Source: Nitrospirota bacterium
Lineage (GTDB): Bacteria > Nitrospirota > UBA9217
Length of the DNA: 64,000 bases
Reading direction: 5' to 3'
Assembly (NCBI GenBank): GCA_963790205.1
Contig: CAWBNQ010000001.1
Span: forward strand, 576,001 to 640,000
The translations under genes were made by a program, and so were the position numbers. Positions within the stretch are counted from its first letter, which is position 1. Each line of letters opens with the position of its first letter. Below, piece by piece: positions 52,154-64,000 of the stretch. Under the pieces are notes generated by a model that was not told where the DNA came from, ran no database searches, and saw only the letters and a list, made by a program, of their open reading frames with translations.

Positions 52154-52254
52154 TACAATGCTCGGAGTTGTGAGTTCGGAGTAGTATCTCTGGCAAGGTT
52201 TTACTCCCAACTCTGCACTCATGACCCTTCCCGCGCCTCATGGGTTCATCGCAC

Positions 52255-52330
52255 GGTCCCATCGTCTAGCGGCCTAGGACGCTGGCCTCTCACGCCGGAG
52301 ACACGGGTTCGATTCCCGTTGGGACCACCA
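52255..52330 (+). tRNA. tRNA-Glu(CTC)
   Basis: GGTCCCATCGTCTAGCGGCCTAGGAC, loop CT CTC AC, CCA. Confidence 0.95.
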
Positions 52331-52559
52331 ATTCACCGTTAAGCGCATAAGCCCCTTGCTAAAACCAACAAGACGATAGCCAGGAAGATCGCCGGGGTAG
52401 GCTCATACAATCGCGCTCTCAGCACTCAAACTTCGAACTCTTTTATCCCGTTCCGCAGGGAGACCTGCCTCTGTTTGACCCCATTTCGTAATCCGAAATC
52501 CGCAATCTGCCCCCCCCCAAAAAAATCACCCACCGAAATCCTTGGAATTTCCGCGCTCT

Positions 52560-53020
52560 GTACACTATGCCATGAACCTGATGCTCCACAGCATCGAGAC
52601 CGACAAAAAGCCCGCATCCGAAACGCCCTGGACAAAGAAGCTCTGGAGCTATGACCTCCGCACGAACAGGCACTTCACGCTCAAGACCAGCTCCCTCCAT
52701 CGTTCTGCCTCGATGAGCTTGTAGCTTGCTATTTTGGCTTGAACGGTTCCAAAACAAATCCTCTTTCAGTCCCTCCTTTGTCAAAGGGGGGAGTTTATTA
52801 GATCGCCAGCAGCGCAAGGCTCCGTGGTCCGAGAAGAAACCCGACGGCCCTGGCGGTTATACAACTACGACGGACTTGCCAGCCGCGACATCTTCCGGCT
52901 CAAAGATGAATCCCCCGAAGATTCCGACAACCTCCCCGGTCCAGGCGTGATCGCCTTGGAGATCGTGGAAGATTTGAAAGGCGTTTGCGCAGTTTAGAGA
53001 GATTGTAACCGGCCTCGTGA
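52560..53020 (+). pseudogene. hsdM: Fragmented type I RM methyltransferase (HsdM) remnant
   Basis: AMNLMLHSIE fused to KPASETPWTKKLWSYDLRTNRHFTLK; later PWSEKKPDG and LKDESPEDSDNLPGPGVIALEIVEDL in shifting frames. Confidence 0.7.
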
Positions 53021-53186
53021 ATGGTAAATCATCAGACGCAGCTTCATAATGCCCGACACCATCCTCGTTCCGGTTGACAGGTCCGACGCGCGCTGTCGGG
53101 TCTGAACACGATAATCGGGCGGCAAAAGCGGAAATACCCTGCCCTCAAATAGTTGACACGTCCGTGTTTATTTGCTATGTTCCTGC

Positions 53187-54671
53187 ATGCGCGCCATACA
53201 GCAAATTCTGGTCGTAGAAGACGATGAACCCATCCAGGACATACTCCGCACTTTTCTTTCGGGAAAAGGTTTTGAAGTAACGTCTGCCCGGAACGGCGAG
53301 GCGGCCCTCGACTTGCTGGGGGTTCAAAAGTTCGACCTCGTTCTGACCGACCTGGTGATGCCCGGCAAGGGAGGGATGGACGTCCTGAAAGCGGCAACGG
53401 CTTCTCAGCCCGGTCTTCCCGTCATTGTCATGACCGGCTTCGGAACCGTCAAAACGGCCGTTGAGGCCATGAAGATCGGCGCCTTCGACTATCTCACCAA
53501 ACCCTTCAACCTCGACGAGCTCATTATCGTTCTCGACAAGGCGCTCTCCGTTTCACAGCTGCAGAAAGAGAACCGGATGCTCAAAATGCAGCTCAAGAAG
53601 AAGTACGTTTTCAAGGGGATCGTCGGCGACTCACCCTCCATGCATGCCGTGTACGAGCTGATAGAAAAGATCGCCGACACCGACAGCACCGTCCTCATAA
53701 CCGGCGAAAGCGGGACCGGCAAGGAGCTTGTTGCCAGGACCATTCACTATAACAACACCAGGCGAGCGAGCGGCCCCTTCGTCGCGCTGAACTGCGCCGC
53801 CATCCCCCAAGACCTCCTTGCCTCGGAGCTCTTCGGCCACGAGAAAGGAGCTTTTACCGGGGCTGTTTATGCGCGGGCCGGCCGGTTCGAACTGGCCCAG
53901 GGCGGCACGCTCTTTCTCGATGAAATAAGCGAGCTCGATCCCGCGCTCCAGGTCAAGCTGCTCCGCGTGCTTCAGGAGCGCGAGTTTCAGCGGGTCGGCG
54001 GAGTGAAAACAGTCAAGGTGGATGTTCGCATCCTCGCGGCCACGAATGCGGACCTGGAAACAGCGACCAAAAAGGGCGCGTTCCGGGAAGACCTGTTTTA
54101 CCGGCTGAACGTCATCCCGCTCCATCTTCCTCCTCTCAGAGATCGGCCGGAGGACCTTGCGCTTTTGACCGCCCATTTTGTCCTGGAATTTTCCCGGAAA
54201 AGACAGCACGAACCGCTTGTCTTTTCAGCTGAGGCAAATGATTGTTTGATGAAGTATTCATGGCCGGGAAACGTGCGGGAGCTCGAAAACCTGATCGAGC
54301 GGCTCTCCATCCTTGTGAGCGGCAGGTCGGTGCAGGTATCGGACCTCCCTCAAACGATGCACCGGATGGATGTTGCCGTCCAGCAACAGGCAATCACCGC
54401 GCAGGAACCGGCGGGCGTCTTCGGAAACCCCGCGCCCGCGGCGATACGATACGACACGCTGGAGGTTGGCGAGACCGGTATTGATCTTGATGAGCTAATC
54501 ACCAGTATCGAGAGGGATCTGATCCGGAAGGCCCTGGAACGGGCCGGAGGAGTAAGGAGCAAGGCGGCCCGGCTTCTCGGCCTTAATCGAACGACGCTCC
54601 TGGAGAAAATAAAAAAAATGGACATCGAGACCGGAAGGCGCCCGGTACCCGTAAAAAAACAAGCCCGTTGA
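53187..54671 (+). CDS. Sigma54-dependent response regulator (NtrC family)
   Basis: REC LTDLVMP, GESGTGKE, GAFTGA, WPGNVRELEN, Fis-type HTH. Confidence 0.95.
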   Translation: MRAIQQILVVEDDEPIQDILRTFLSGKGFEVTSARNGEAALDLLGVQKFDLVLTDLVMPGKGGMDVLKAATASQPGLPVIVMTGFGTVKTAVEAMKIGAFDYLTKPFNLDELIIVLDKALSVSQLQKENRMLKMQLKKKYVFKGIVGDSPSMHAVYELIEKIADTDSTVLITGESGTGKELVARTIHYNNTRRASGPFVALNCAAIPQDLLASELFGHEKGAFTGAVYARAGRFELAQGGTLFLDEISELDPALQVKLLRVLQEREFQRVGGVKTVKVDVRILAATNADLETATKKGAFREDLFYRLNVIPLHLPPLRDRPEDLALLTAHFVLEFSRKRQHEPLVFSAEANDCLMKYSWPGNVRELENLIERLSILVSGRSVQVSDLPQTMHRMDVAVQQQAITAQEPAGVFGNPAPAAIRYDTLEVGETGIDLDELITSIERDLIRKALERAGGVRSKAARLLGLNRTTLLEKIKKMDIETGRRPVPVKKQAR

Positions 54672-54788
54672 CCAACTGAGAATTCGAGAGGATTTCGCCA
54701 AGACATCCCGAAAGAGCGCTCCAAGGCCGCGGTCCGGATCCTGACCTTTCTCCACAAGAGGAGCGGGCGTCTGTAGGCGCACGCGCCA

Positions 54789-56984
54789 TCAAATGGTGGT
54801 GAGAGCGGTTTTCGCTTTCGCGTCGAGGATACGCCGTACCACCGAGAGCAGGTAGGGGGATTCAAAGGGCTTCTTCAGGAAGCCGTCGATTTCCCGTATT
54901 CCGTCCTTGTCCGCAATATATTTCGTGTGGCCGGACATGGCGAGAATCTTTATTTCGGGCTTTATCTCCTTGATCTGCCTGATGAGCTCCATGCCGTCCA
55001 TCTGCGGCATGGCGATGTCCGTAATAACGAGCGCTATCTCCTGAGGAATTTTTTTGAAAATGCTGAGCGCGCTGGGGGAATCGCTCATGGCGAAGGTCTT
55101 GTAGCCATGGCCTGTAAGTGCCTCCTGGACGGCGTTGAGCGTCTCCTTCTCATCATCGACAATGAGCAGCGTTTCATTTCCGCCCACAGGAGTAAGCAAT
55201 TCCTTCTCCCGCGCGAGGGCGGCCTTGCGCGAAGCGGGCAGGTAGATGGTAAAGAGCGTGCCGGCGCCGGGCTCGCTTGCGACCGTGATATATCCCTTAT
55301 GCTCTTTGACCGCTCCATACACCATGGACAGGCCGAGCCCGGTGCCCTTGCCCCGTTCTTTCGTGGTGAAAAACGGCTCGAAGATCCTATTGATGATATC
55401 CTTCGGGATGCCCGTCCCCGTATCCGAGAGGCTGAATACGACGTATTCTCCCGGCAGGATGTAGGCCGGGACGTCCGGCATGCCTTGCACAACGTCCACA
55501 ACGGAAGTTTTGATTACGATCCCCCCCCCTTTCGGCATGGCATCCCGGGCGTTGATGATAAGGTTCATGACGATCTGCTCTATATGGTTGGTATCTCCCT
55601 GGATGGGCGGAAGATGGCTGTCGAGCTCCACGCGCATCTCGATGTTTTTGTCGATGACCCGCTCGAGGAGCTTGAGCGTATCATACACCACGTCGTTGAG
55701 GTAGAGCGGCACGATCTCATACTTGCTCTTGCGCGCGAAGCCCAGCAGTCTTGAGATCATCCTCCCCGCCCTTCGCGAGGCGTCTTCGATCACGCCGAGA
55801 CTGTTCGTTGACTTTACATCCAATACGGAATTCTTGCGAATGATCTCCGCATGGCCGAGGATGGCCGTCAGAATGTTGTTGAAATCATGGGCAATGCCGC
55901 CCGCGAGCACGCCGATGGACTCCATCTTCTGTGACTGGGACAGGTGCTCCTGGAATTTCTTCCTCTCCGTAATATCACGGTAAAAGGATTGAATGAACAG
56001 TTCCTCGCCGATAGTAATCGCTTTTGCGCTGACCTCGAGATCGATGGAGTTGCCGTCCTTTTTGTTATGTCTGGTTTCAAACACGAGGGATTCCCCAGCC
56101 AAAATCCGCCGCATCCTCTCTGCCATTTTTTCCGTATTGCCTGCATCTTCAAGCAGCTTTATGTGCGTGCCTAGTAATGCCTCTCTGCTGAAACCGTGCA
56201 TCTCGCATGCTTTCCCATTTGTGTTCAGAATGACGCCGTTCTTGTCGAGGACGACGATGCCGTCCGTGGCGTTCTCAAAAAGCGACCGGTGCCACTGCTC
56301 GGATTTATGCAAATCTTTTGTTCTTTCTTCAACCAGGTCCTCAAGTTTACGGGAATACATTTCGAGCTGCCCTTTGTCCTTTGCAAGCTCGTATTCAAGA
56401 GATAGCTTCTTGATAAGGAGTGTATAGTTGTAATACCGCCACGCCAACCCAGTCACCGCAGCCGCAGTTAAGAAAACAGTATTATTTATAAATATTCTGA
56501 AGTTTGTGATTTTATCTAAAATAAGAATAGGGAGCAGATAAATTCCATAAATCATAGAAGCCATTGTTAACGTTACTCTAAAAGAAACCGGTACAAAACC
56601 TAGAATAAACATAAAAAGAATAGTAAATCCGGCATAGTAAACAGATTGATGTCCGCCAAAAGACAGCATCATTAACTCAATCATTGAAGCAGGTATTAAA
56701 ATACCTACAAACAAGACAGTTATCTGAAAAAGGTTAGTCTTCTTAAGCCTAAAAATGAAATATAAAACTACCTGTAGTGAGGCTGAAATGAATCTATACG
56801 TGAGGAATTTTGTAAAATTTTCGGGCGTGACAAAATAATCCAACATACTTAATAATACAGTAACACCAGCTCCAGCAAGTAAAAGAGCCCCTCCCATTGA
56901 CTGCAAGTAAGTTGATAGTTCTTGTTCTATATATTTGTTTTTGTCCATATAAATTAGTGTATCAAAAATTTGATTCGATAACAA
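54789..56984 (-). CDS. Membrane hybrid histidine kinase (multi-TM sensor, PAS, HisKA, HATPase, REC); alternative start 56948
   Basis: About 5 TM helices, PAS (FENATDGI), GIAHDFNN, GTGLGL, VITDIAMP. Confidence 0.93.
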   Translation of the reverse strand: MLSNQIFDTLIYMDKNKYIEQELSTYLQSMGGALLLAGAGVTVLLSMLDYFVTPENFTKFLTYRFISASLQVVLYFIFRLKKTNLFQITVLFVGILIPASMIELMMLSFGGHQSVYYAGFTILFMFILGFVPVSFRVTLTMASMIYGIYLLPILILDKITNFRIFINNTVFLTAAAVTGLAWRYYNYTLLIKKLSLEYELAKDKGQLEMYSRKLEDLVEERTKDLHKSEQWHRSLFENATDGIVVLDKNGVILNTNGKACEMHGFSREALLGTHIKLLEDAGNTEKMAERMRRILAGESLVFETRHNKKDGNSIDLEVSAKAITIGEELFIQSFYRDITERKKFQEHLSQSQKMESIGVLAGGIAHDFNNILTAILGHAEIIRKNSVLDVKSTNSLGVIEDASRRAGRMISRLLGFARKSKYEIVPLYLNDVVYDTLKLLERVIDKNIEMRVELDSHLPPIQGDTNHIEQIVMNLIINARDAMPKGGGIVIKTSVVDVVQGMPDVPAYILPGEYVVFSLSDTGTGIPKDIINRIFEPFFTTKERGKGTGLGLSMVYGAVKEHKGYITVASEPGAGTLFTIYLPASRKAALAREKELLTPVGGNETLLIVDDEKETLNAVQEALTGHGYKTFAMSDSPSALSIFKKIPQEIALVITDIAMPQMDGMELIRQIKEIKPEIKILAMSGHTKYIADKDGIREIDGFLKKPFESPYLLSVVRRILDAKAKTALTTI

Positions 56985-56986
56985 TC

Positions 56987-58411
56987 TTAATCACGAATGA
57001 CTTTTTCTTTTCGCAGGATCATTTTAGCTGTATCATAACCAACATGTACCACACCTGAGATCCCAAGTCCTCGGGTTGTCCAGTGGCCTGTCAGATAAAG
57101 ACCCTGGATGAACGAAGGTTTCCTAAAATCTGGGAGCGCTAATTGTGAAGGGGTAACAGCCCATCCAAAGGTAGCTCCCTTGTGATTCAAGGTATATCTG
57201 AAAAGCGTTTGTGGAGTGGCTACATCTTTATATATAGTATGTTTTGACAAACCAGGAACGACATCTTTTTCTAGTCTTTTTATAAAGGATTCTGCTAATA
57301 TTTTTTTATTGTCAGCCCAGTATTTTTTATTTATGAATGGTACATTAATGAAAGAAGTAAGACTCTTTTTATCGGGAGATACGTGCGTCAAATATCCTCC
57401 AATGCTGTCAAAATTTTTCTTTTTTATTGTAGAATATGCATTGTCAAAATTGTAGTGAGACAGTATCCACAAGTTGGTGCCCGGCTCAGGTAAATTGTAA
57501 TAATGTTTGTCCATTCCTAAATATAAAATAAATGCTGAAAGTGCGGGTGTCATCTTAGTGACGCTGCTTAAAAAATCTGCACTTATAATTCTTTTCCCTA
57601 ACAATTTGAAGAAGGTCTGCGTGGCGTCACAGTTAGATATTACATATCGCGATGGTATGAAATCGCCTCCTTCAGAAACTATACCATCAACTTTATTCTC
57701 TCTGACCTTTATTTTTTTTACAGGGCAAGAAAGCCGTAATTCACCACCCGATTGCTTGAATGTTTCAGCTAATGCATCAGGAAGTGTTTGCATGCCACCT
57801 TCCGGATAATAACCGCCGTCAAGGAGAAATTCTGTAAAGATTTGAGCGCCCATACAAGCTGATAAGAATGTTGGAGATGCGCCGCTATTGCCATATACTG
57901 GAAGGGATAAGATGGACTTTAATTTATCATCCTTAAAATACTTATCTAATAAATTCTTAAATGTCCAGCTTCTAATACGAGCAAAAAAAATTGGCTCGGG
58001 GTTAACCAAGAGCGAGAAAAATTTTTTAATATTGTCACTTTCTTCCGGGAAAGCTTTCTGAAAGTCTGTAATTGTATTTTTAAAGTCAGCCCAGAAAGAG
58101 ATTTTGTAATCAGGGCTTATTACAATGTCTGACGGGTCATATCGTATAATCCTGACTCGTTTGTTTATTCCAAGATCATTAAACACCTTTCTCATAATCC
58201 CACCCGTTCTATAGGCGCCAAACGAGTGAGCCGCAGCATCAAAGGTGAACCCGGATCTTTTAAATGAGGTACAATAACCACCGGGCTTATAATGCTGCTC
58301 TGCTATGAGGACTTTCATTCCTGCCTTCGCGAGATAGCAGCCGCAGACAAGGCCGCTCATGCCTGCACCTATGATTACAACATCATAAATATCTTTATCA
58401 ACCTTTAACAT
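56987..58411 (-). CDS. FAD-dependent oxidoreductase, phytoene desaturase/retinol saturase family
   Basis: IIGAGMSG, PGGYCTSF..GFTFD, YPEGG, TPQTLFRYT..GA, GLYLTGHW. Confidence 0.88.
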   Translation of the reverse strand: MLKVDKDIYDVVIIGAGMSGLVCGCYLAKAGMKVLIAEQHYKPGGYCTSFKRSGFTFDAAAHSFGAYRTGGIMRKVFNDLGINKRVRIIRYDPSDIVISPDYKISFWADFKNTITDFQKAFPEESDNIKKFFSLLVNPEPIFFARIRSWTFKNLLDKYFKDDKLKSILSLPVYGNSGASPTFLSACMGAQIFTEFLLDGGYYPEGGMQTLPDALAETFKQSGGELRLSCPVKKIKVRENKVDGIVSEGGDFIPSRYVISNCDATQTFFKLLGKRIISADFLSSVTKMTPALSAFILYLGMDKHYYNLPEPGTNLWILSHYNFDNAYSTIKKKNFDSIGGYLTHVSPDKKSLTSFINVPFINKKYWADNKKILAESFIKRLEKDVVPGLSKHTIYKDVATPQTLFRYTLNHKGATFGWAVTPSQLALPDFRKPSFIQGLYLTGHWTTRGLGISGVVHVGYDTAKMILRKEKVIRD

Positions 58412-58664
58412 TGATCGAACTTTTTTGACTCAATAAATTATTAACAAGTGCCACAGCTTCCTTCACGGTTGTAATTTTGGGAACATCCTCATCCCGCACC
58501 GACACTTTAAATTTTTTTTCAATTGCAACCGTAATTTCGATTGCCTTAATAGAATCGACTTCAAGGTCCTTAAAAAAATTTTTCTCGGGTGTTATCATTT
58601 CCATATCAAATCCTGAAACATCTGAGATTATCGAGACTATTTCTTTTTCCACATTTACAGCCAT
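58398..58664 (-). CDS. Acyl carrier protein
   Basis: DLEVDSIKAIEI (phosphopantetheine Ser); GAGGAG RBS. Confidence 0.9.
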   Translation of the reverse strand: MAVNVEKEIVSIISDVSGFDMEMITPEKNFFKDLEVDSIKAIEITVAIEKKFKVSVRDEDVPKITTVKEAVALVNNLLSQKSSINVKG

Positions 58665-58683
58665 TGTTATCTCCTCATCGTTC

Positions 58684-59898
58684 TTAGCCGGTAAATTTTC
58701 TTAAGATCAGGCAGGCATTATTGCCGCCAAAGGCATACGAGTTGTTTAGGGCTACTGTGATGGTATGTTTTCTTGATTGATTAGGTACGCAGTCAATATC
58801 GCATTCCGGGTCGGGTGTTTCGTAATTTATGGTTGGTGGAATCATATCATTTTTTACGGCAAGTGCGCAAGCGATCGCTTCGATTGCCGAAGCCGCTCCC
58901 ATGGTGTGACCGAGCATGGACTTAATGGAACTCACGGGTATCTTCGTATAGAGAGGTCCGAAGACTTCCTTAATGGCTGCGGACTCATTTCTGTCATTGG
59001 TAAGAGTTCCGGTCCCATGGGCGCTTATATAATCTACGCGCTCAGCCGTAATCTCTGTCTCCCGCATTGCTTTTCTCATGCACGCTACAATGCCTTCCGT
59101 GGAGGATGTAGTCATGTGGAAGGCATCACAGCTGAGTCCGTACCCAAGAACCTCGGCATAAATACCGGCTTTTCTTTTTATCGCATTTTCGAGGGATTCG
59201 AGAACCACTAATCCTGCGCCTTCGGCTACCATCATACCCTTCCTGCTTTTATCAAAAGGCTGGCACTTTTCAGGCGCGACAGCTGAGAACTGATTAAACC
59301 CCGTGAAAGCAACCTTGGAGAGAGGTTCGGCGCCTCCCGCGAGGAGAATGTCGGCCCTGCCGAGACGGATCAAATCCAGTCCGTATCCTATTGCATAATT
59401 ACCTGCCGCACATGCGGTTGAAAACATCAGATTGGGGCCGTGCAGAGAAAATGTCTCTGCAATGACCGAAGGAGTTGAATGTGTCGGCACTTGACGAATC
59501 AGATTTTCGCTGATCTGATGCTTTTTTTCGGCAACAATCATTTCATCTATCTTTTCCACAGTCTGGATAGATCCCATTGTTGTTCCGATACAAACGCCAG
59601 TCCTCAGACTGGAAAGTTCACTTAATGATAAATCAGCATCCTTGATTGCGAGCGTTGCAGCAGCGAGAGCCAGCTGTGACGCCCTACTGAGGGAATTAAT
59701 TTTATTCCCGGGAATGAATTCCTCAGGGTTAAAATTTTTAACCTCTCCTCCGTTGTGAGTAAACTGGTTTGAAGTGTCAAAGGACGTCACAGGGCTTATC
59801 CCTGATTTTCCCTTCAGGAGATTATCCCAGAATTCCTCCCACCCGATGCCGATCGAGGAAATGACGCCCAGGCCTGTTATCACGACTCGCTTATTCAT
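58684..59898 (-). CDS. fabF: Beta-ketoacyl-ACP synthase II-like (active KS)
   Basis: STACAAG, HGTGT, KSMLGH catalytic Cys-His-His. Confidence 0.9.
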   Translation of the reverse strand: MNKRVVITGLGVISSIGIGWEEFWDNLLKGKSGISPVTSFDTSNQFTHNGGEVKNFNPEEFIPGNKINSLSRASQLALAAATLAIKDADLSLSELSSLRTGVCIGTTMGSIQTVEKIDEMIVAEKKHQISENLIRQVPTHSTPSVIAETFSLHGPNLMFSTACAAGNYAIGYGLDLIRLGRADILLAGGAEPLSKVAFTGFNQFSAVAPEKCQPFDKSRKGMMVAEGAGLVVLESLENAIKRKAGIYAEVLGYGLSCDAFHMTTSSTEGIVACMRKAMRETEITAERVDYISAHGTGTLTNDRNESAAIKEVFGPLYTKIPVSSIKSMLGHTMGAASAIEAIACALAVKNDMIPPTINYETPDPECDIDCVPNQSRKHTITVALNNSYAFGGNNACLILRKFTG

Positions 59899-60331
59899 TT
59901 TTTACACTGAATACCAGCTCCGCCTCTGTTATCTTTTTGTCGTCGACAAATGCCTCGCCCGACACATAAGCGCCGGTCGGCAGGGATTTGACGTTTTCAA
60001 CCCTGATTTTCAACTGGTCGCCCGGTATAGCGGGGTGGAGAAAGCGTGCCTTGACCGAACCGAAGTAATACATCGGTTTTTTCCCCTCTTCGGGTTTCTC
60101 TTTTCCCAGGGCAAAAAGGATGATGGCGGTCTGTGCCATTGCCTCAAGTATGAGGGCGCCGGGCATAACGGCCTTGTCGGGAAAATGGCCGAGAAAGACC
60201 ATATCATTGCCCGAAATGTTCTTCACGGCAACGATGTGTTTCCCGGGTTCGATTTCCAGGATCCGGTCGATCATGATGAAGGGAAAACGCTGGGGCACGA
60301 GCTTTTTGATTTCTTCAAAGTCAAGTTGCAT
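59891..60331 (-). CDS. fabZ: 3-hydroxyacyl-ACP dehydratase
   Basis: PQRFPF, GHFP, MPGALILEAMAQ, PGDQL. Confidence 0.92.
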   Translation of the reverse strand: MQLDFEEIKKLVPQRFPFIMIDRILEIEPGKHIVAVKNISGNDMVFLGHFPDKAVMPGALILEAMAQTAIILFALGKEKPEEGKKPMYYFGSVKARFLHPAIPGDQLKIRVENVKSLPTGAYVSGEAFVDDKKITEAELVFSVKNE

Positions 60332-60334
60332 CGA

Positions 60335-61570
60335 TCATCCTTCGTAGCTGCCTAATACAACGGCGGAGTTCTGACCGTATGGGTCAGTTGAGGTCACGAG
60401 CACGGTCTTGACGCGTTTCTGTCTTGCTTCATTCGGGACGTAATCGAGGTCGCACTCGGGATCTTTTTCCTTATAGTTGACAGTAGGGAATAGTATACCC
60501 TTCTGTATAGCGCCTACGACGGCTGAAAGGGATAGAGCGCCGGAAGCTGAAAAAGACTCCCCTACCATGGATTTTATCGAACTCACCGGGATCGTATATG
60601 CATGTTTTCCAAAAACTTCTTTTATTACCCTCGTTTCCATCCTGTCAAGATTCTTTGTTGAATTGGAACAAGCGCTGATAAAGTCTATGTCTTCAGGCTT
60701 GAGAGAAGCATCCTTTAAAGCGTGCAGAATGGCATTCTTTAAGCCTTTTCCCGCATGATTGAAGCTGCTATCCGCTGAAGGATCAAAGACATTGCCGTAG
60801 CCCAGTACTTGTGCAAGAATGGCGGCGCCCCTGTTTATTGCGTGGTCCTCATCTTCAAGTACCAGCACTGCTGCGCCCTCAGAAAGCAATACTCCGTTCC
60901 TTCTCGCATCAAAGGGGCAGCAGCGGGGCTCTGAACCGTCCGTCCCCGATAAACAGCCGAGCTTATGAAAACCCAGAAAAGCTTCTTCGCACAGCTCTTC
61001 AACCCCGCCGGCAAGTACAACGTCGGCCCTGTTTAAGTGTATGAAGTCGGCAGCATAGGAAAGGGCGTCAAGGCTGGCGCAGAAGCCTGTGGATATGGTG
61101 GTGTTGAACCCTTTAATTTTAAAACGAATGGAAACCTGGCTTGCCGGGGAATTTATGACGGTGTTCGGAAAGTGTGAGGGATTGACAAAGCGCGGCCCCT
61201 CGATGAGGCCCGACCGGTCGAATTGCGAGATGCTGTGGAGGCTTCCGAACGTCGTGCCGATCGAGACGCCTGCGGAATGAGTATTCTCTTCTGTGATCTG
61301 GAGGCGGGCGTCTTCGAGAGCGAGCTTTGCAGCGGAGCATATCAGCCTCGTGCTCCTGTCGAGGTCCCGCAGCCCTTTCTTGCCGAGCAAAGAAAGGGGA
61401 TCAAAGCCGGCCAGCTCGCCGGCAGAATGGATCTGCAAGGGTGCTGTATCGAACAGGGTTATGTCCCGGAATCCTGTTTTCCCCTGGAACAGCCCTTCCC
61501 AGTAGTTATCCCGGCCGATGCCGATGGGCGATAAGACCCCTATGCCTGAGATTACGACCGTTCTTTTCAT
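60335..61570 (-). CDS. Non-catalytic ketosynthase homolog (chain-length-factor-like)
   Basis: KS fold, but STACAAG becomes STGFCAS, HGTGT becomes CSNST and KSMLGH becomes KSMVGE. Confidence 0.85.
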   Translation of the reverse strand: MKRTVVISGIGVLSPIGIGRDNYWEGLFQGKTGFRDITLFDTAPLQIHSAGELAGFDPLSLLGKKGLRDLDRSTRLICSAAKLALEDARLQITEENTHSAGVSIGTTFGSLHSISQFDRSGLIEGPRFVNPSHFPNTVINSPASQVSIRFKIKGFNTTISTGFCASLDALSYAADFIHLNRADVVLAGGVEELCEEAFLGFHKLGCLSGTDGSEPRCCPFDARRNGVLLSEGAAVLVLEDEDHAINRGAAILAQVLGYGNVFDPSADSSFNHAGKGLKNAILHALKDASLKPEDIDFISACSNSTKNLDRMETRVIKEVFGKHAYTIPVSSIKSMVGESFSASGALSLSAVVGAIQKGILFPTVNYKEKDPECDLDYVPNEARQKRVKTVLVTSTDPYGQNSAVVLGSYEG

Positions 61571-61576
61571 CCTGGC

Positions 61577-62344
61577 TTATATCCCCAGTCCCCCGTCTAT
61601 CTGAATTACCTGCCCGGTGATATACTGAGATGCATCGCTCACTAAGAATACTACAACCTGCGCCACCTCATCCGGCGTGCCGAATCTTCCCAGCGGGATC
61701 ATCTTCATGACCTTCTCTCTGTATTTTTCAGCAAACGACGCTGTCATGTCAGTGGCCACAAAACCGGGAGCAACGGCATTGACCCTGATATTATACGGCG
61801 CCACCTCTGCTGCCAGCGATTTGGTAAAGCCGATCACCCCTGCCTTTGCAGCCGCGTAGTTGGCCTGGCCCGCAAGCGGATGAATGCCGCTGACCGACGA
61901 GATGTTCACGATGTTTCCGCTCTTTTGCTTCAGAAAGGTGATGATGCATGCGCGTGATGTATTAAAAACGCCGGTAAGGTCTGTTTCTATTACCTCGGAC
62001 CAATCCTCTTTATTCATCATCATAAGGGATTTGTCGCGTGTTATGCCTGCGTTATTGACAAGGATATCGATCTTTCCGAATTCTTTTTTTACCTCTTCTA
62101 TAAACGTTCTGGCGCCTTCAAACTCCCTCACGTCCAGTTGAAAAGGCGTTGCCTTCCTGCCCATGATCTGAACTTCTCTTGCCAGCGATTCTGCTGCTGC
62201 CGGATTTTTCGTATACGTGAATGCGCAATCAGCGCCTTCACGGCACAGGGCAAGTACGATGGAGCGGCCTATGCCCCTTGTCCCTCCCGTTACGATCGCT
62301 ACCTTGTTGAGAACTGAGTTCTTTTCCATGCCTTGCGCGTTCAC
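61577..62344 (-). CDS. fabG: 3-oxoacyl-ACP reductase (alternative start 62329)
   Basis: TGGTRGIG, NNAGITRD, NYAAAKAG, VNAVAPG. Confidence 0.92.
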   Translation of the reverse strand: MNAQGMEKNSVLNKVAIVTGGTRGIGRSIVLALCREGADCAFTYTKNPAAAESLAREVQIMGRKATPFQLDVREFEGARTFIEEVKKEFGKIDILVNNAGITRDKSLMMMNKEDWSEVIETDLTGVFNTSRACIITFLKQKSGNIVNISSVSGIHPLAGQANYAAAKAGVIGFTKSLAAEVAPYNIRVNAVAPGFVATDMTASFAEKYREKVMKMIPLGRFGTPDEVAQVVVFLVSDASQYITGQVIQIDGGLGI

Positions 62345-62747: not shown

Positions 62748-63800
62748 TTAATACTTCGTAGCAGTGTAAAAGATTATTGAACCTGATTTTACGCGGGTCA
62801 TTGATAATGCGCTGCCGGGGATTTCTGCTTGATGGAGCAACCTTTCAAAATCCTCCTGCGTACGCTGCAGAAAGCCGTCCCAGTCGGCGAGCCAGTGGTA
62901 GCCTTGCGACCGGTAACGGGTCGCGTCCTTAAAAGCCGCTATGAGCTTTCCCCCCGGGTTGAGCATCAGATAGAGGGAGTTGAGCACTTTGGCGAGAAAA
63001 TCATCGGCCAGGTAATCGAAATATCCAACGCTGTAAATGATATCTTGCATGCCGAATGCAGACACCGCGGTCTCGTAGTCGAACATTCTGAGAGCATTGT
63101 ATTGGATAAATTCGGCCCGATCTGACGAAAGGCCCGCATAGGACAAACGATCGAGTGCGAAATCGAGTGCTTCAGGGTCTAAATCGATACATTTGATGTG
63201 GGCGCCGGTTTTTTCAATTTCCGGGACTATTTCATGCACCTCACGGCATGAGCCGCAGGCGATATCGAGGACCTTCGGATGTTGTCTGTTGATGAGCTCT
63301 GTTTTCAGCAGCTCAGCCAGTTTTTGCATTCTTTCTCGCACCCCTACGGCAAGGGTTGTAGAAAGCATATATTTATCGAGATGATATCCTATCCCTTCCG
63401 ACATCGGCGTATTTCTATATAGGAATTCTATTGTTTTGTAATCTCCCTGGTATCCTTGGGGCCATGTCCGGGCCCGGTTTGCACCGTAGCTTTTTGAGAA
63501 AATAGGGTCCGTCTTATCACGAAAGGCGACCCGTGCGGCTTTGATTGCCGCCTCGTTGTTCACCAAATTCTCAAATTGTTCGCAAACCTGGAGCATCGAG
63601 TCGTTCAGGACGGACAGTTCCTGAAAGATGCTTTCGGCGTCTCCCTCCTGTTTTATGCACCTCCGCTCAATAGCTTTGAGCGAGTCCATATACTGATCGG
63701 TTGTTGCTTCAAGATAGCTGATATATTTTTCGCTCTCCTCGCTGACAAGCAATGTTTTTTCGTTGATCGTTTCATCTTCGTAACTCCATGAATTTTGCAT
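62748..63800 (-). CDS. Class I SAM-dependent methyltransferase, PhcB-like
   Basis: RARTWPQGYQGDY motif, VLDIACGS, DLDPEAL, YSVGYFDYL; GGAGGTG RBS before ATG 63800. Confidence 0.75.
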   Translation of the reverse strand: MQNSWSYEDETINEKTLLVSEESEKYISYLEATTDQYMDSLKAIERRCIKQEGDAESIFQELSVLNDSMLQVCEQFENLVNNEAAIKAARVAFRDKTDPIFSKSYGANRARTWPQGYQGDYKTIEFLYRNTPMSEGIGYHLDKYMLSTTLAVGVRERMQKLAELLKTELINRQHPKVLDIACGSCREVHEIVPEIEKTGAHIKCIDLDPEALDFALDRLSYAGLSSDRAEFIQYNALRMFDYETAVSAFGMQDIIYSVGYFDYLADDFLAKVLNSLYLMLNPGGKLIAAFKDATRYRSQGYHWLADWDGFLQRTQEDFERLLHQAEIPGSALSMTRVKSGSIIFYTATKY

Positions 63801-64000
63801 GTTCACCTCCCGAGTAATTTTTTTCGGTACCGTGTAAACCGCCCCTGGCAGGCTCAAAAACTTCCAATCCCCCAGTGTAGACAGACTTCAACAGAACAAT
63901 CACCCCTTTCCCATGAGGAGCTGTGTTCAATTACGTTTTCATTTCCTGCCGGTTGCGCTATGAAAATAACCGCCGTGCTGCGATAAAAGGGTTCTATTTT

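Follow-up and report, generated by a model that had tools for sequence, protein, structure and literature searches.

The 64,000-nucleotide stretch analysed here (the window; positions 576,001 to 640,000 of contig CAWBNQ010000001.1, assembly GCA_963790205.1, from a Nitrospirota bacterium) carries a minus-strand operon encoding, in this order, a methyltransferase, a FabG-type ketoreductase, an inactive ketosynthase partner, a FabZ dehydratase, an active ketosynthase (KS), an acyl carrier protein (ACP), a flavin oxidoreductase (OX) and a hybrid histidine kinase. We are highly confident that OX and the membrane sensor of the kinase have been exchanged jointly between relatives within this conserved operon. 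A near-clonal relative, represented by the metagenome contig X1, is 97.6% identical to the window over 53000-56369 and 98.2% identical over 59714-61184, and from OX codon 52 to kinase codon 206 (56370-58255) has a different sequence of 1,870 letters. The same contig is 85% alike over ACP and has a KS that is diverged up to 59714, and a second X1 contig runs on to 64000 at 99.5%. The features of the locus, in window coordinates, are:

62748..63857, minus strand: S-adenosylmethionine (SAM) methyltransferase, PhcB-like, probable start 63800; belongs to the conserved frame and follows the kinase core (Pfam, homolog names, hhalign, tree)
61577..62344, minus strand: FabG-type ketoreductase (TIGR01830 above cut-off)
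60335..61570, minus strand: inactive ketosynthase partner, chain-length-factor-like (CLF) (catalytic His positions, PDB match)
59891..60331, minus strand: FabZ dehydratase, anammox amxFabZ-like (PDB matches)
58684..59898, minus strand: active KS, in which residues ~61-150 are a second variable spot, unlinked to the sensor (Cys-His-His, PDB match)
58398..58664, minus strand: ACP, an AT-rich passenger of longer exchange tracts (Pfam, composition, trees)
56987..58411, minus strand: OX, of the CrtI/CrtISO family; codons 1-~55 stay conserved as an anchor for crossovers and the remainder moves with the sensor
54789..56984, minus strand: hybrid histidine kinase, probable start 56948, with a six-helix MASE8/PhcS-like sensor (residues ~13-190), a coiled coil, PAS, HisKA, HATPase and REC
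56370..58255, no strand: core of the exchanged block, made up of OX body and membrane sensor (X1 contig; same edges against locus L102 and in L065/L090)
53172..54671, plus strand: sigma-54 (NtrC-type) response regulator, convergent, a possible output, present in some relatives only (Pfam, locus survey)

Further contigs and loci place the edges of the block. X2, from the same study as X1, stops matching the window at the same base. X3, X6 and X8, from three other studies, carry the window's block at 93-94% with flanks at 89-95%, and extend across the kinase junction; a second X8 contig departs from the window sequence at 56347, and the runs X5, X12 and X14 gave short pieces only. Since the near-clonal X1 has a different block whilst more distant contigs share that of the window, X1 is the likelier recipient of the swap. 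Compared with L102, the window falls to 49-71% nucleotide identity between OX codon ~60 and kinase codon ~180-190, the flanks being mostly at 80-98%, and the edges in L065/L090 are as in this comparison. Other pairs of loci break at about position 300 or 60 of KS or 60 of FabZ, or change in the sensor only. The right breakpoint is fixed, at kinase residue ~190-210, and the left one is variable and nested.

The kinases themselves are mosaics. From the best 120 matches to residues 215-731 of the window kinase, the 93 with at least 700 residues were kept and, together with that of the window, form a set of 94. In 20 of the 41 pairs whose cores are at least 95% identical the sensors are less than 60% alike, and three pairs at 99% core identity have sensors that are 31-37% alike. 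The reverse case is that of P0125 and P0162, with cores at 77% and sensors at 97%. The window sensor is 82% alike to those of P0143 and P0155 and 33-52% alike to the sensors of its five closest cores. A 65% cut yields 38 sensor types; more than one type is found in 11 of 14 multi-member core clusters, one type is spread over 10 core clusters, and L056, L057 and L115 show several alleles on near-identical backgrounds. Among 58 discordant pairs, identity climbs from 37-57% at residues 170-199 to 91% at residue 220, and this rise falls just past the last membrane helix of the AlphaFold model.

Phylogenies of the separate parts indicate that OX travels with the sensor. The trees are FastTree estimates for 28 loci, none a duplicate, in which KS, ACP, OX and kinase are all intact; loci with frameshifts and incomplete loci were dropped. 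OX and sensor have 13 of 25 splits in common, as against 3 of 25 each for sensor and core, OX and core, and ACP and sensor. Of the splits common to OX and sensor, ten are supported at 0.9 or above, and seven of these clash with well-supported core splits. For the 21 loci with the methyltransferase, this gene and the kinase core agree in 10 of 18 splits, as do OX and sensor, whereas block and frame agree in 1 of 18. Approximately unbiased (AU) tests rejected the core tree for the sensor by 620 and for OX by 907 log units. OX codons 1-55, which behave apart from the OX body, and segments of KS do not track the sensor. Nor does ACP, which is not hypervariable (81-90% amino-acid identity in pairs with sensors only 49-57% alike) and is a passenger riding in longer tracts. 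As a control, in the solo loci, where methyltransferase and kinase occur without the synthase, the sensor is rarely AT-rich (3 of 14) and, in the two close pairs, as conserved as the core. The original prediction had pherotypes created by joint exchange of the enzyme and the ligand-binding domain, with enzyme, receptor N-terminus and ACP as one cassette. The exchange itself is upheld by the incongruent trees of block and frame, by the fixed right edge, by near-identical backgrounds with different blocks and by X1; the ACP has to be left out of the cassette.

The genes at the two ends of the operon are related to a known signalling pair. Homologs of the methyltransferase at 85-87% carry the JGI name 'EF 3-hydroxypalmitic acid methyl ester biosynthesis protein', and a Paraburkholderia plasmid encodes adjoining homologs of both methyltransferase and sensor. 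By hhalign, the methyltransferase matches the Paraburkholderia PhcB-annotated protein at 99.1% (E 5.9e-19, 270 columns) and the sensor matches the Paraburkholderia kinase at 98.1% (E 1e-13, 169 columns). A sensor search of 72,556 plasmid records gave this kinase as its sole match at E ≤ 0.01, and the clusters of the pair bear PhcB-type, PhcS and PhcQ names. In Ralstonia, according to PMC7694676, methyl 3-hydroxy fatty esters are made by PhcB and sensed by PhcS, two proteins that co-evolve with the signal type. Of the sensor family, 43 of 55 members match MASE8 (PF20968) at E ≤ 0.05 (best 2.2e-7), the window sensor scoring 16 bits against a cut-off of 26.2. The sensor has six helices in the AlphaFold model (predicted local distance difference test score 92.5) and four by a hydropathy rule. 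The model resembles ImcA (Z 17.3, root-mean-square deviation (rmsd) 5.6, 213 aligned) and the six-helix domains of membrane adenylyl cyclases (Z 15.7, rmsd 3.2, 204 aligned; and Z 15.2), the next row scoring 10.1; Foldseek returned no match at E ≤ 0.001, with ImcA and adenylyl cyclase entries still ranked first. Such six-helix membrane domains are described, in PMC4821796, as sharing their design with the lipid-sensing receptors CqsS and LqsS.

Other searches with the methyltransferase were less informative. Its fold search led to class I methyltransferases of a generic kind (3ocj scoring best, Z 21.6) and to no substrate clue, no NCBIfam model was found for the family, cluster look-ups for 10 PhcB-length matches gave no informative name, and a search started from a distant homolog stayed among Desulfobacterota-type proteins. 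Longer relatives (P0087; P0241-P0360) bear N-terminal PilZ (PF07238) or cyclic-nucleotide-binding (PF00027) domains, which the window protein lacks; this suggests that synthesis in those relatives may be under second-messenger control.

Between the methyltransferase and OX lies a dedicated synthase. The active KS keeps Cys-His-His in 59 of 59 sequences, and both catalytic His residues of its partner are replaced in 54 of 54; at the catalytic Cys position the window CLF has, by eye, a Phe, with a Cys one residue on. The best PDB match of the KS is 9s5h_B (497 bits against 359 for the next; 6kxd is second) and that of the CLF is 9s5h_C (382 bits against 266), both far above canonical FabF, and the five top matches of the FabZ are all amxFabZ entries. 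The 9s5h entry is presumably the anammox heterodimer, although its code is absent from the text of the preprint 10.64898/2026.05.19.726425. These matches recall anammox Cluster I (kuste3603-3608: amxACP, amxFabZ, amxFabF2/amxFabFmut, PDH-like, B12 radical SAM), as treated in that preprint, PMC10139942 and PMC2649909, a likeness that rests on best PDB matches rather than on a phylogeny with anammox sequences. The preprint places a motif at KS residues 110-140 at the substrate site; residues 61-150, the most variable part of our KS, overlap this motif and do not track the sensor. A CrtI-like flavoenzyme also occurs in both Cluster I and the window operon, its likeness to the PDH (kuste3607) being at the family level only. 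Unlike Cluster I, the window operon has no radical-SAM gene, has FabG, methyltransferase and sensor kinase besides, and belongs to a non-anammox host. The highly reducing type II polyketide synthase for ishigamide (Iga11/Iga12; compare the KS match 6kxd) is similar in having a KS with an inactive partner, a ketoreductase, a dehydratase, an ACP and no enoyl reductase; the window operon would differ in release by a PhcB-like methyltransferase and in coupling to a receptor.

The operon shares with phcBSRQ of Ralstonia and other Burkholderiaceae, whose signals are methyl 3-hydroxypalmitate (3-OH PAME) or methyl 3-hydroxymyristate (3-OH MAME), a homologous methyltransferase and membrane sensor in like order and strand. 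It differs in the KS/CLF synthase and tailoring gene placed between methyltransferase and kinase, in a hybrid PAS/REC kinase without phcR and phcQ, and in having 38 sensor types where phcBSRQ has two signal types. Because the methyltransferase follows the kinase core and not the sensor, specificity appears to have shifted to the tailoring enzyme, unlike in phcBSRQ. In comQXP of Bacillus and agrBDC of Staphylococcus, variation of the receptor is confined to its N-terminus and the region is low in GC. The likeness is that of a polymorphic block of signal-shaping gene and receptor in a conserved frame. It is an analogy only, with no sequence homology expected: the signal here would be a lipid made by enzymes without a peptide precursor, and the left boundary is variable and nested. 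As the block consists of OX and sensor without intergenic room, there is no place for a peptide precursor gene. The polymorphism and pherotypes of those systems are covered by PMC4408185 and PMC6461992. The operon is thus pherotype-like in its working and Phc-like by homology, and is neither phcBSRQ, agr/comQXP nor Cluster I proper. No published account of this Nitrospirota system was found in the literature, subscription papers and bioRxiv supplements being outside reach, and the string 'Nitrospir' is absent from two anammox enzyme papers.

We propose that the operon probably serves both to make and to sense a lipid ester, with recognition specific to the type, OX body and sensor together forming the specificity module of a Phc-type signalling system that might report on cell density. 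The KS/CLF pair, FabG and FabZ would build a dedicated acyl chain on ACP, which is probably unsaturated since the operon has no enoyl reductase. OX, or elsewhere a cyclopropane-synthase-like methyltransferase or a B12 radical-SAM enzyme, would alter this chain, and its release as a diffusible methyl ester would fall to the PhcB-like methyltransferase. The signal is likely to be a fatty-acid methyl ester modified by tailoring, for which there would be dozens of receptor types. In the membrane, the six-helix sensor would bind the ester and control the kinase. Crossovers fall in the conserved flavin adenine dinucleotide (FAD)-binding start of OX (or in KS or FabZ, farther upstream) on one side, and on the other in the coiled coil past the last membrane helix; by moving enzyme and receptor together, they would keep signal and receptor matched.

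A different reading accepts the exchange of the block, but takes the product to be a membrane lipid or other specialised metabolite, along the lines of the ladderane cluster, and the kinase to be an intracellular feedback monitor. It draws on the KS, CLF and FabZ being nearest the anammox Cluster I enzymes among solved structures, on the B12 radical-SAM genes of L030 and L068, and on the kinase missing from some loci. It is not clear, however, why homeostatic sensing would call for dozens of receptor types reshuffled between near-identical strains, and both flanking genes are related to a known diffusible-signal pair and are also found alone, without the synthase, in the 14 solo loci used (L018, L037 and L072 among them). 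We regard this reading as unlikely.

It is less probable still that OX and sensor are just fast-evolving or hitch-hiking neighbours, whose common history reflects linkage and not functional matching. Co-transfer of adjacent genes is to be expected anyway, the tracts lie nested within each other, with ACP and KS often part of them, and changes of the sensor alone and loss of OX both occur. Fast evolution, however, cannot yield sensors at 97% on cores at 77%, nor a clean replacement between flanks at 98%; ACP overlaps OX without following it, codons 1-55 of OX do not follow the OX body, and the constant right breakpoint coincides with a domain boundary.

Several observations weigh against joint exchange as a matched signalling module. 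OX and sensor alignments reject each other's tree in the AU tests (log-likelihood differences of 118 and 97), yet by far less than they reject the core tree, so their congruence is strong but imperfect. OX is present without an adjoining kinase in L013 and L017. L005 has lost most of OX and has a sensor still 95% identical to that of the OX-bearing L075, although L005 contains many frameshifts and may reflect an assembly error; between L004 and L075 the difference lies chiefly in the sensor (77%), OX being at 87%. The protein database was clustered at 90%, which removed close pairs of the same type and thereby inflates the share of discordant kinase pairs, but cannot create such pairs. The 1,870 replacing letters of X1 are known by number and place only. 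As regards the signalling part, the Phc likeness was measured against the Paraburkholderia pair alone, and the operon, which ends at the hybrid kinase, contains no phcR- or phcQ-type regulator.

The block is also marked by its composition. GC falls from ~0.55 to 0.32-0.45 at ~56.3-58.8 kb, with edges at 56294-56474 and 58649-58874 in a two-changepoint fit; the island (0.370) is far below the genome tile mean of 0.551 (sd 0.042), and only 1 of 1,912 non-overlapping tiles of the whole genome is as low. GC at fourfold sites is 0.28 for the sensor (kinase residues 1-190), 0.35 for OX and 0.43 for ACP, as against 0.83 for the kinase core. The active KS is intermediate (GC at third positions 0.49), and the edge toward ACP and KS is soft, whereas that inside the kinase gene is sharp. 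The turn to AT-rich composition within the kinase gene and the host-like cytoplasmic part were thus predicted correctly, and sensor, OX and ACP are AT-rich as claimed, but the claim that the AT-rich block spans exactly these three was too strict. The shift is synonymous: 58 other polytopic segments of the same genome have a median fourfold-site GC of 0.80 and a minimum of 0.57, so that an amino-acid bias of membrane helices, the alternative named beforehand, does not account for it.

Low GC is a standing property that marks the exchangeable region across the lineage. Fourfold-site GC of the sensor lies over 0.1 below that of its own core in 35 of 42 loci linked to a synthase and in 3 of 14 solo loci (kin not being independent). 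Divergence between the window and L115 is about equal inside and outside the block; low GC does not point to a recent import here, and the window genome may carry an inherited allele. Escape from GC-favouring recombination or selection, or old low-GC donors, would both be candidate sources of the AT-richness; a crude estimate from polarised fourfold-site substitutions gives similar short-term equilibria for OX, sensor and core (0.47-0.52). A single recent import from a low-GC donor, or an assembly chimera, could be read from the sharp edge inside a gene and from the homologous operons of low-GC Nitrospirota, but is very improbable, being largely refuted by the 35 of 42 loci and by the X3, X6 and X8 contigs, which cross the whole block and the kinase junction, while the window's closest sensor alleles sit on kinases with cores 79-82% alike.

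Named relatives of the window genes are Nitrospirota metagenome-assembled genomes. Of 64 genomes of the family, 43 have the methyltransferase, and the KS is found in 49 of 401 genomes sampled across the phylum. In the tree, the synthase-linked methyltransferases group in a single clade (support 1.0), and the kinase core of the solo locus L018 is 72% identical to that of the window. The tailoring gene varies by locus: some have OX, others a cyclopropane-synthase-like methyltransferase or a B12 radical-SAM enzyme, and some have no such gene. Genes of the second kind are found in L011, L012, L032, L060, L076 and L085, and are echoed by a cyclopropane-fatty-acyl synthase family gene (L184:2541-3563) just upstream of a Paraburkholderia phcBS-like operon. 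OX stumps persist in OX-less loci (L005:15290-15450, residues 1-55; L010:15284-15370, residues 14-42) and end at the usual left breakpoint; the L056 operon is likewise without OX.

The sensor family extends to an orphan hybrid kinase (L182:6561-8771, G000:C2), 32% identical to the window in the sensor and 41% in the core, which has no methyltransferase beside it; its genome has a single methyltransferase of this family, and the kinase is possibly an eavesdropping receptor. A more distant sensor copy is fused to an adenylate/guanylate cyclase domain (L183:4555-5856, G000:C1). Another region for lipid synthesis, the second such cluster, lies at ~19.5-53 kb of G000:C11 and contains three KS homologs together with one OX paralog and three genes of the radical-SAM kind. 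A promoter and terminator scan stayed at chance level, and no sigma-54 pattern was found upstream of the methyltransferase in 14 loci. At 52200-52820 the sequence resembles, judged by eye, tRNA genes, with a fragment after them that is similar to the end of a type I restriction methylase.

Taken at its broadest, our proposal is that of a combinatorial lipid language in Nitrospirota, to which we would give an even chance: a circuit of the Phc family would have taken over a KS/CLF synthase of the anammox type, and its nested modules (tailoring enzyme with receptor, the KS tunnel segment and optional methylating enzymes) would be swapped to give dozens of pherotypes coexisting within species. Pherotype cassettes are best known from Gram-positive peptide signals. 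Here, in a phylum whose uncultured members live in soil, peat and groundwater, a like design would be built around a lipid synthase and would come with many more receptor types. If true, the signal of this pherotype cassette would be a lipid tailored by enzymes, and the system would offer a handle on the unsolved enzyme chemistry of the ladderane cluster. The naturally matched enzyme-receptor pairs would provide a way to test lipid recognition by six-helix membrane sensors, such as PhcS and the adenylyl-cyclase-type domains, and likewise to probe the role of the CrtI-like enzyme and the KS/CLF pair that the operon has in common with the ladderane cluster.

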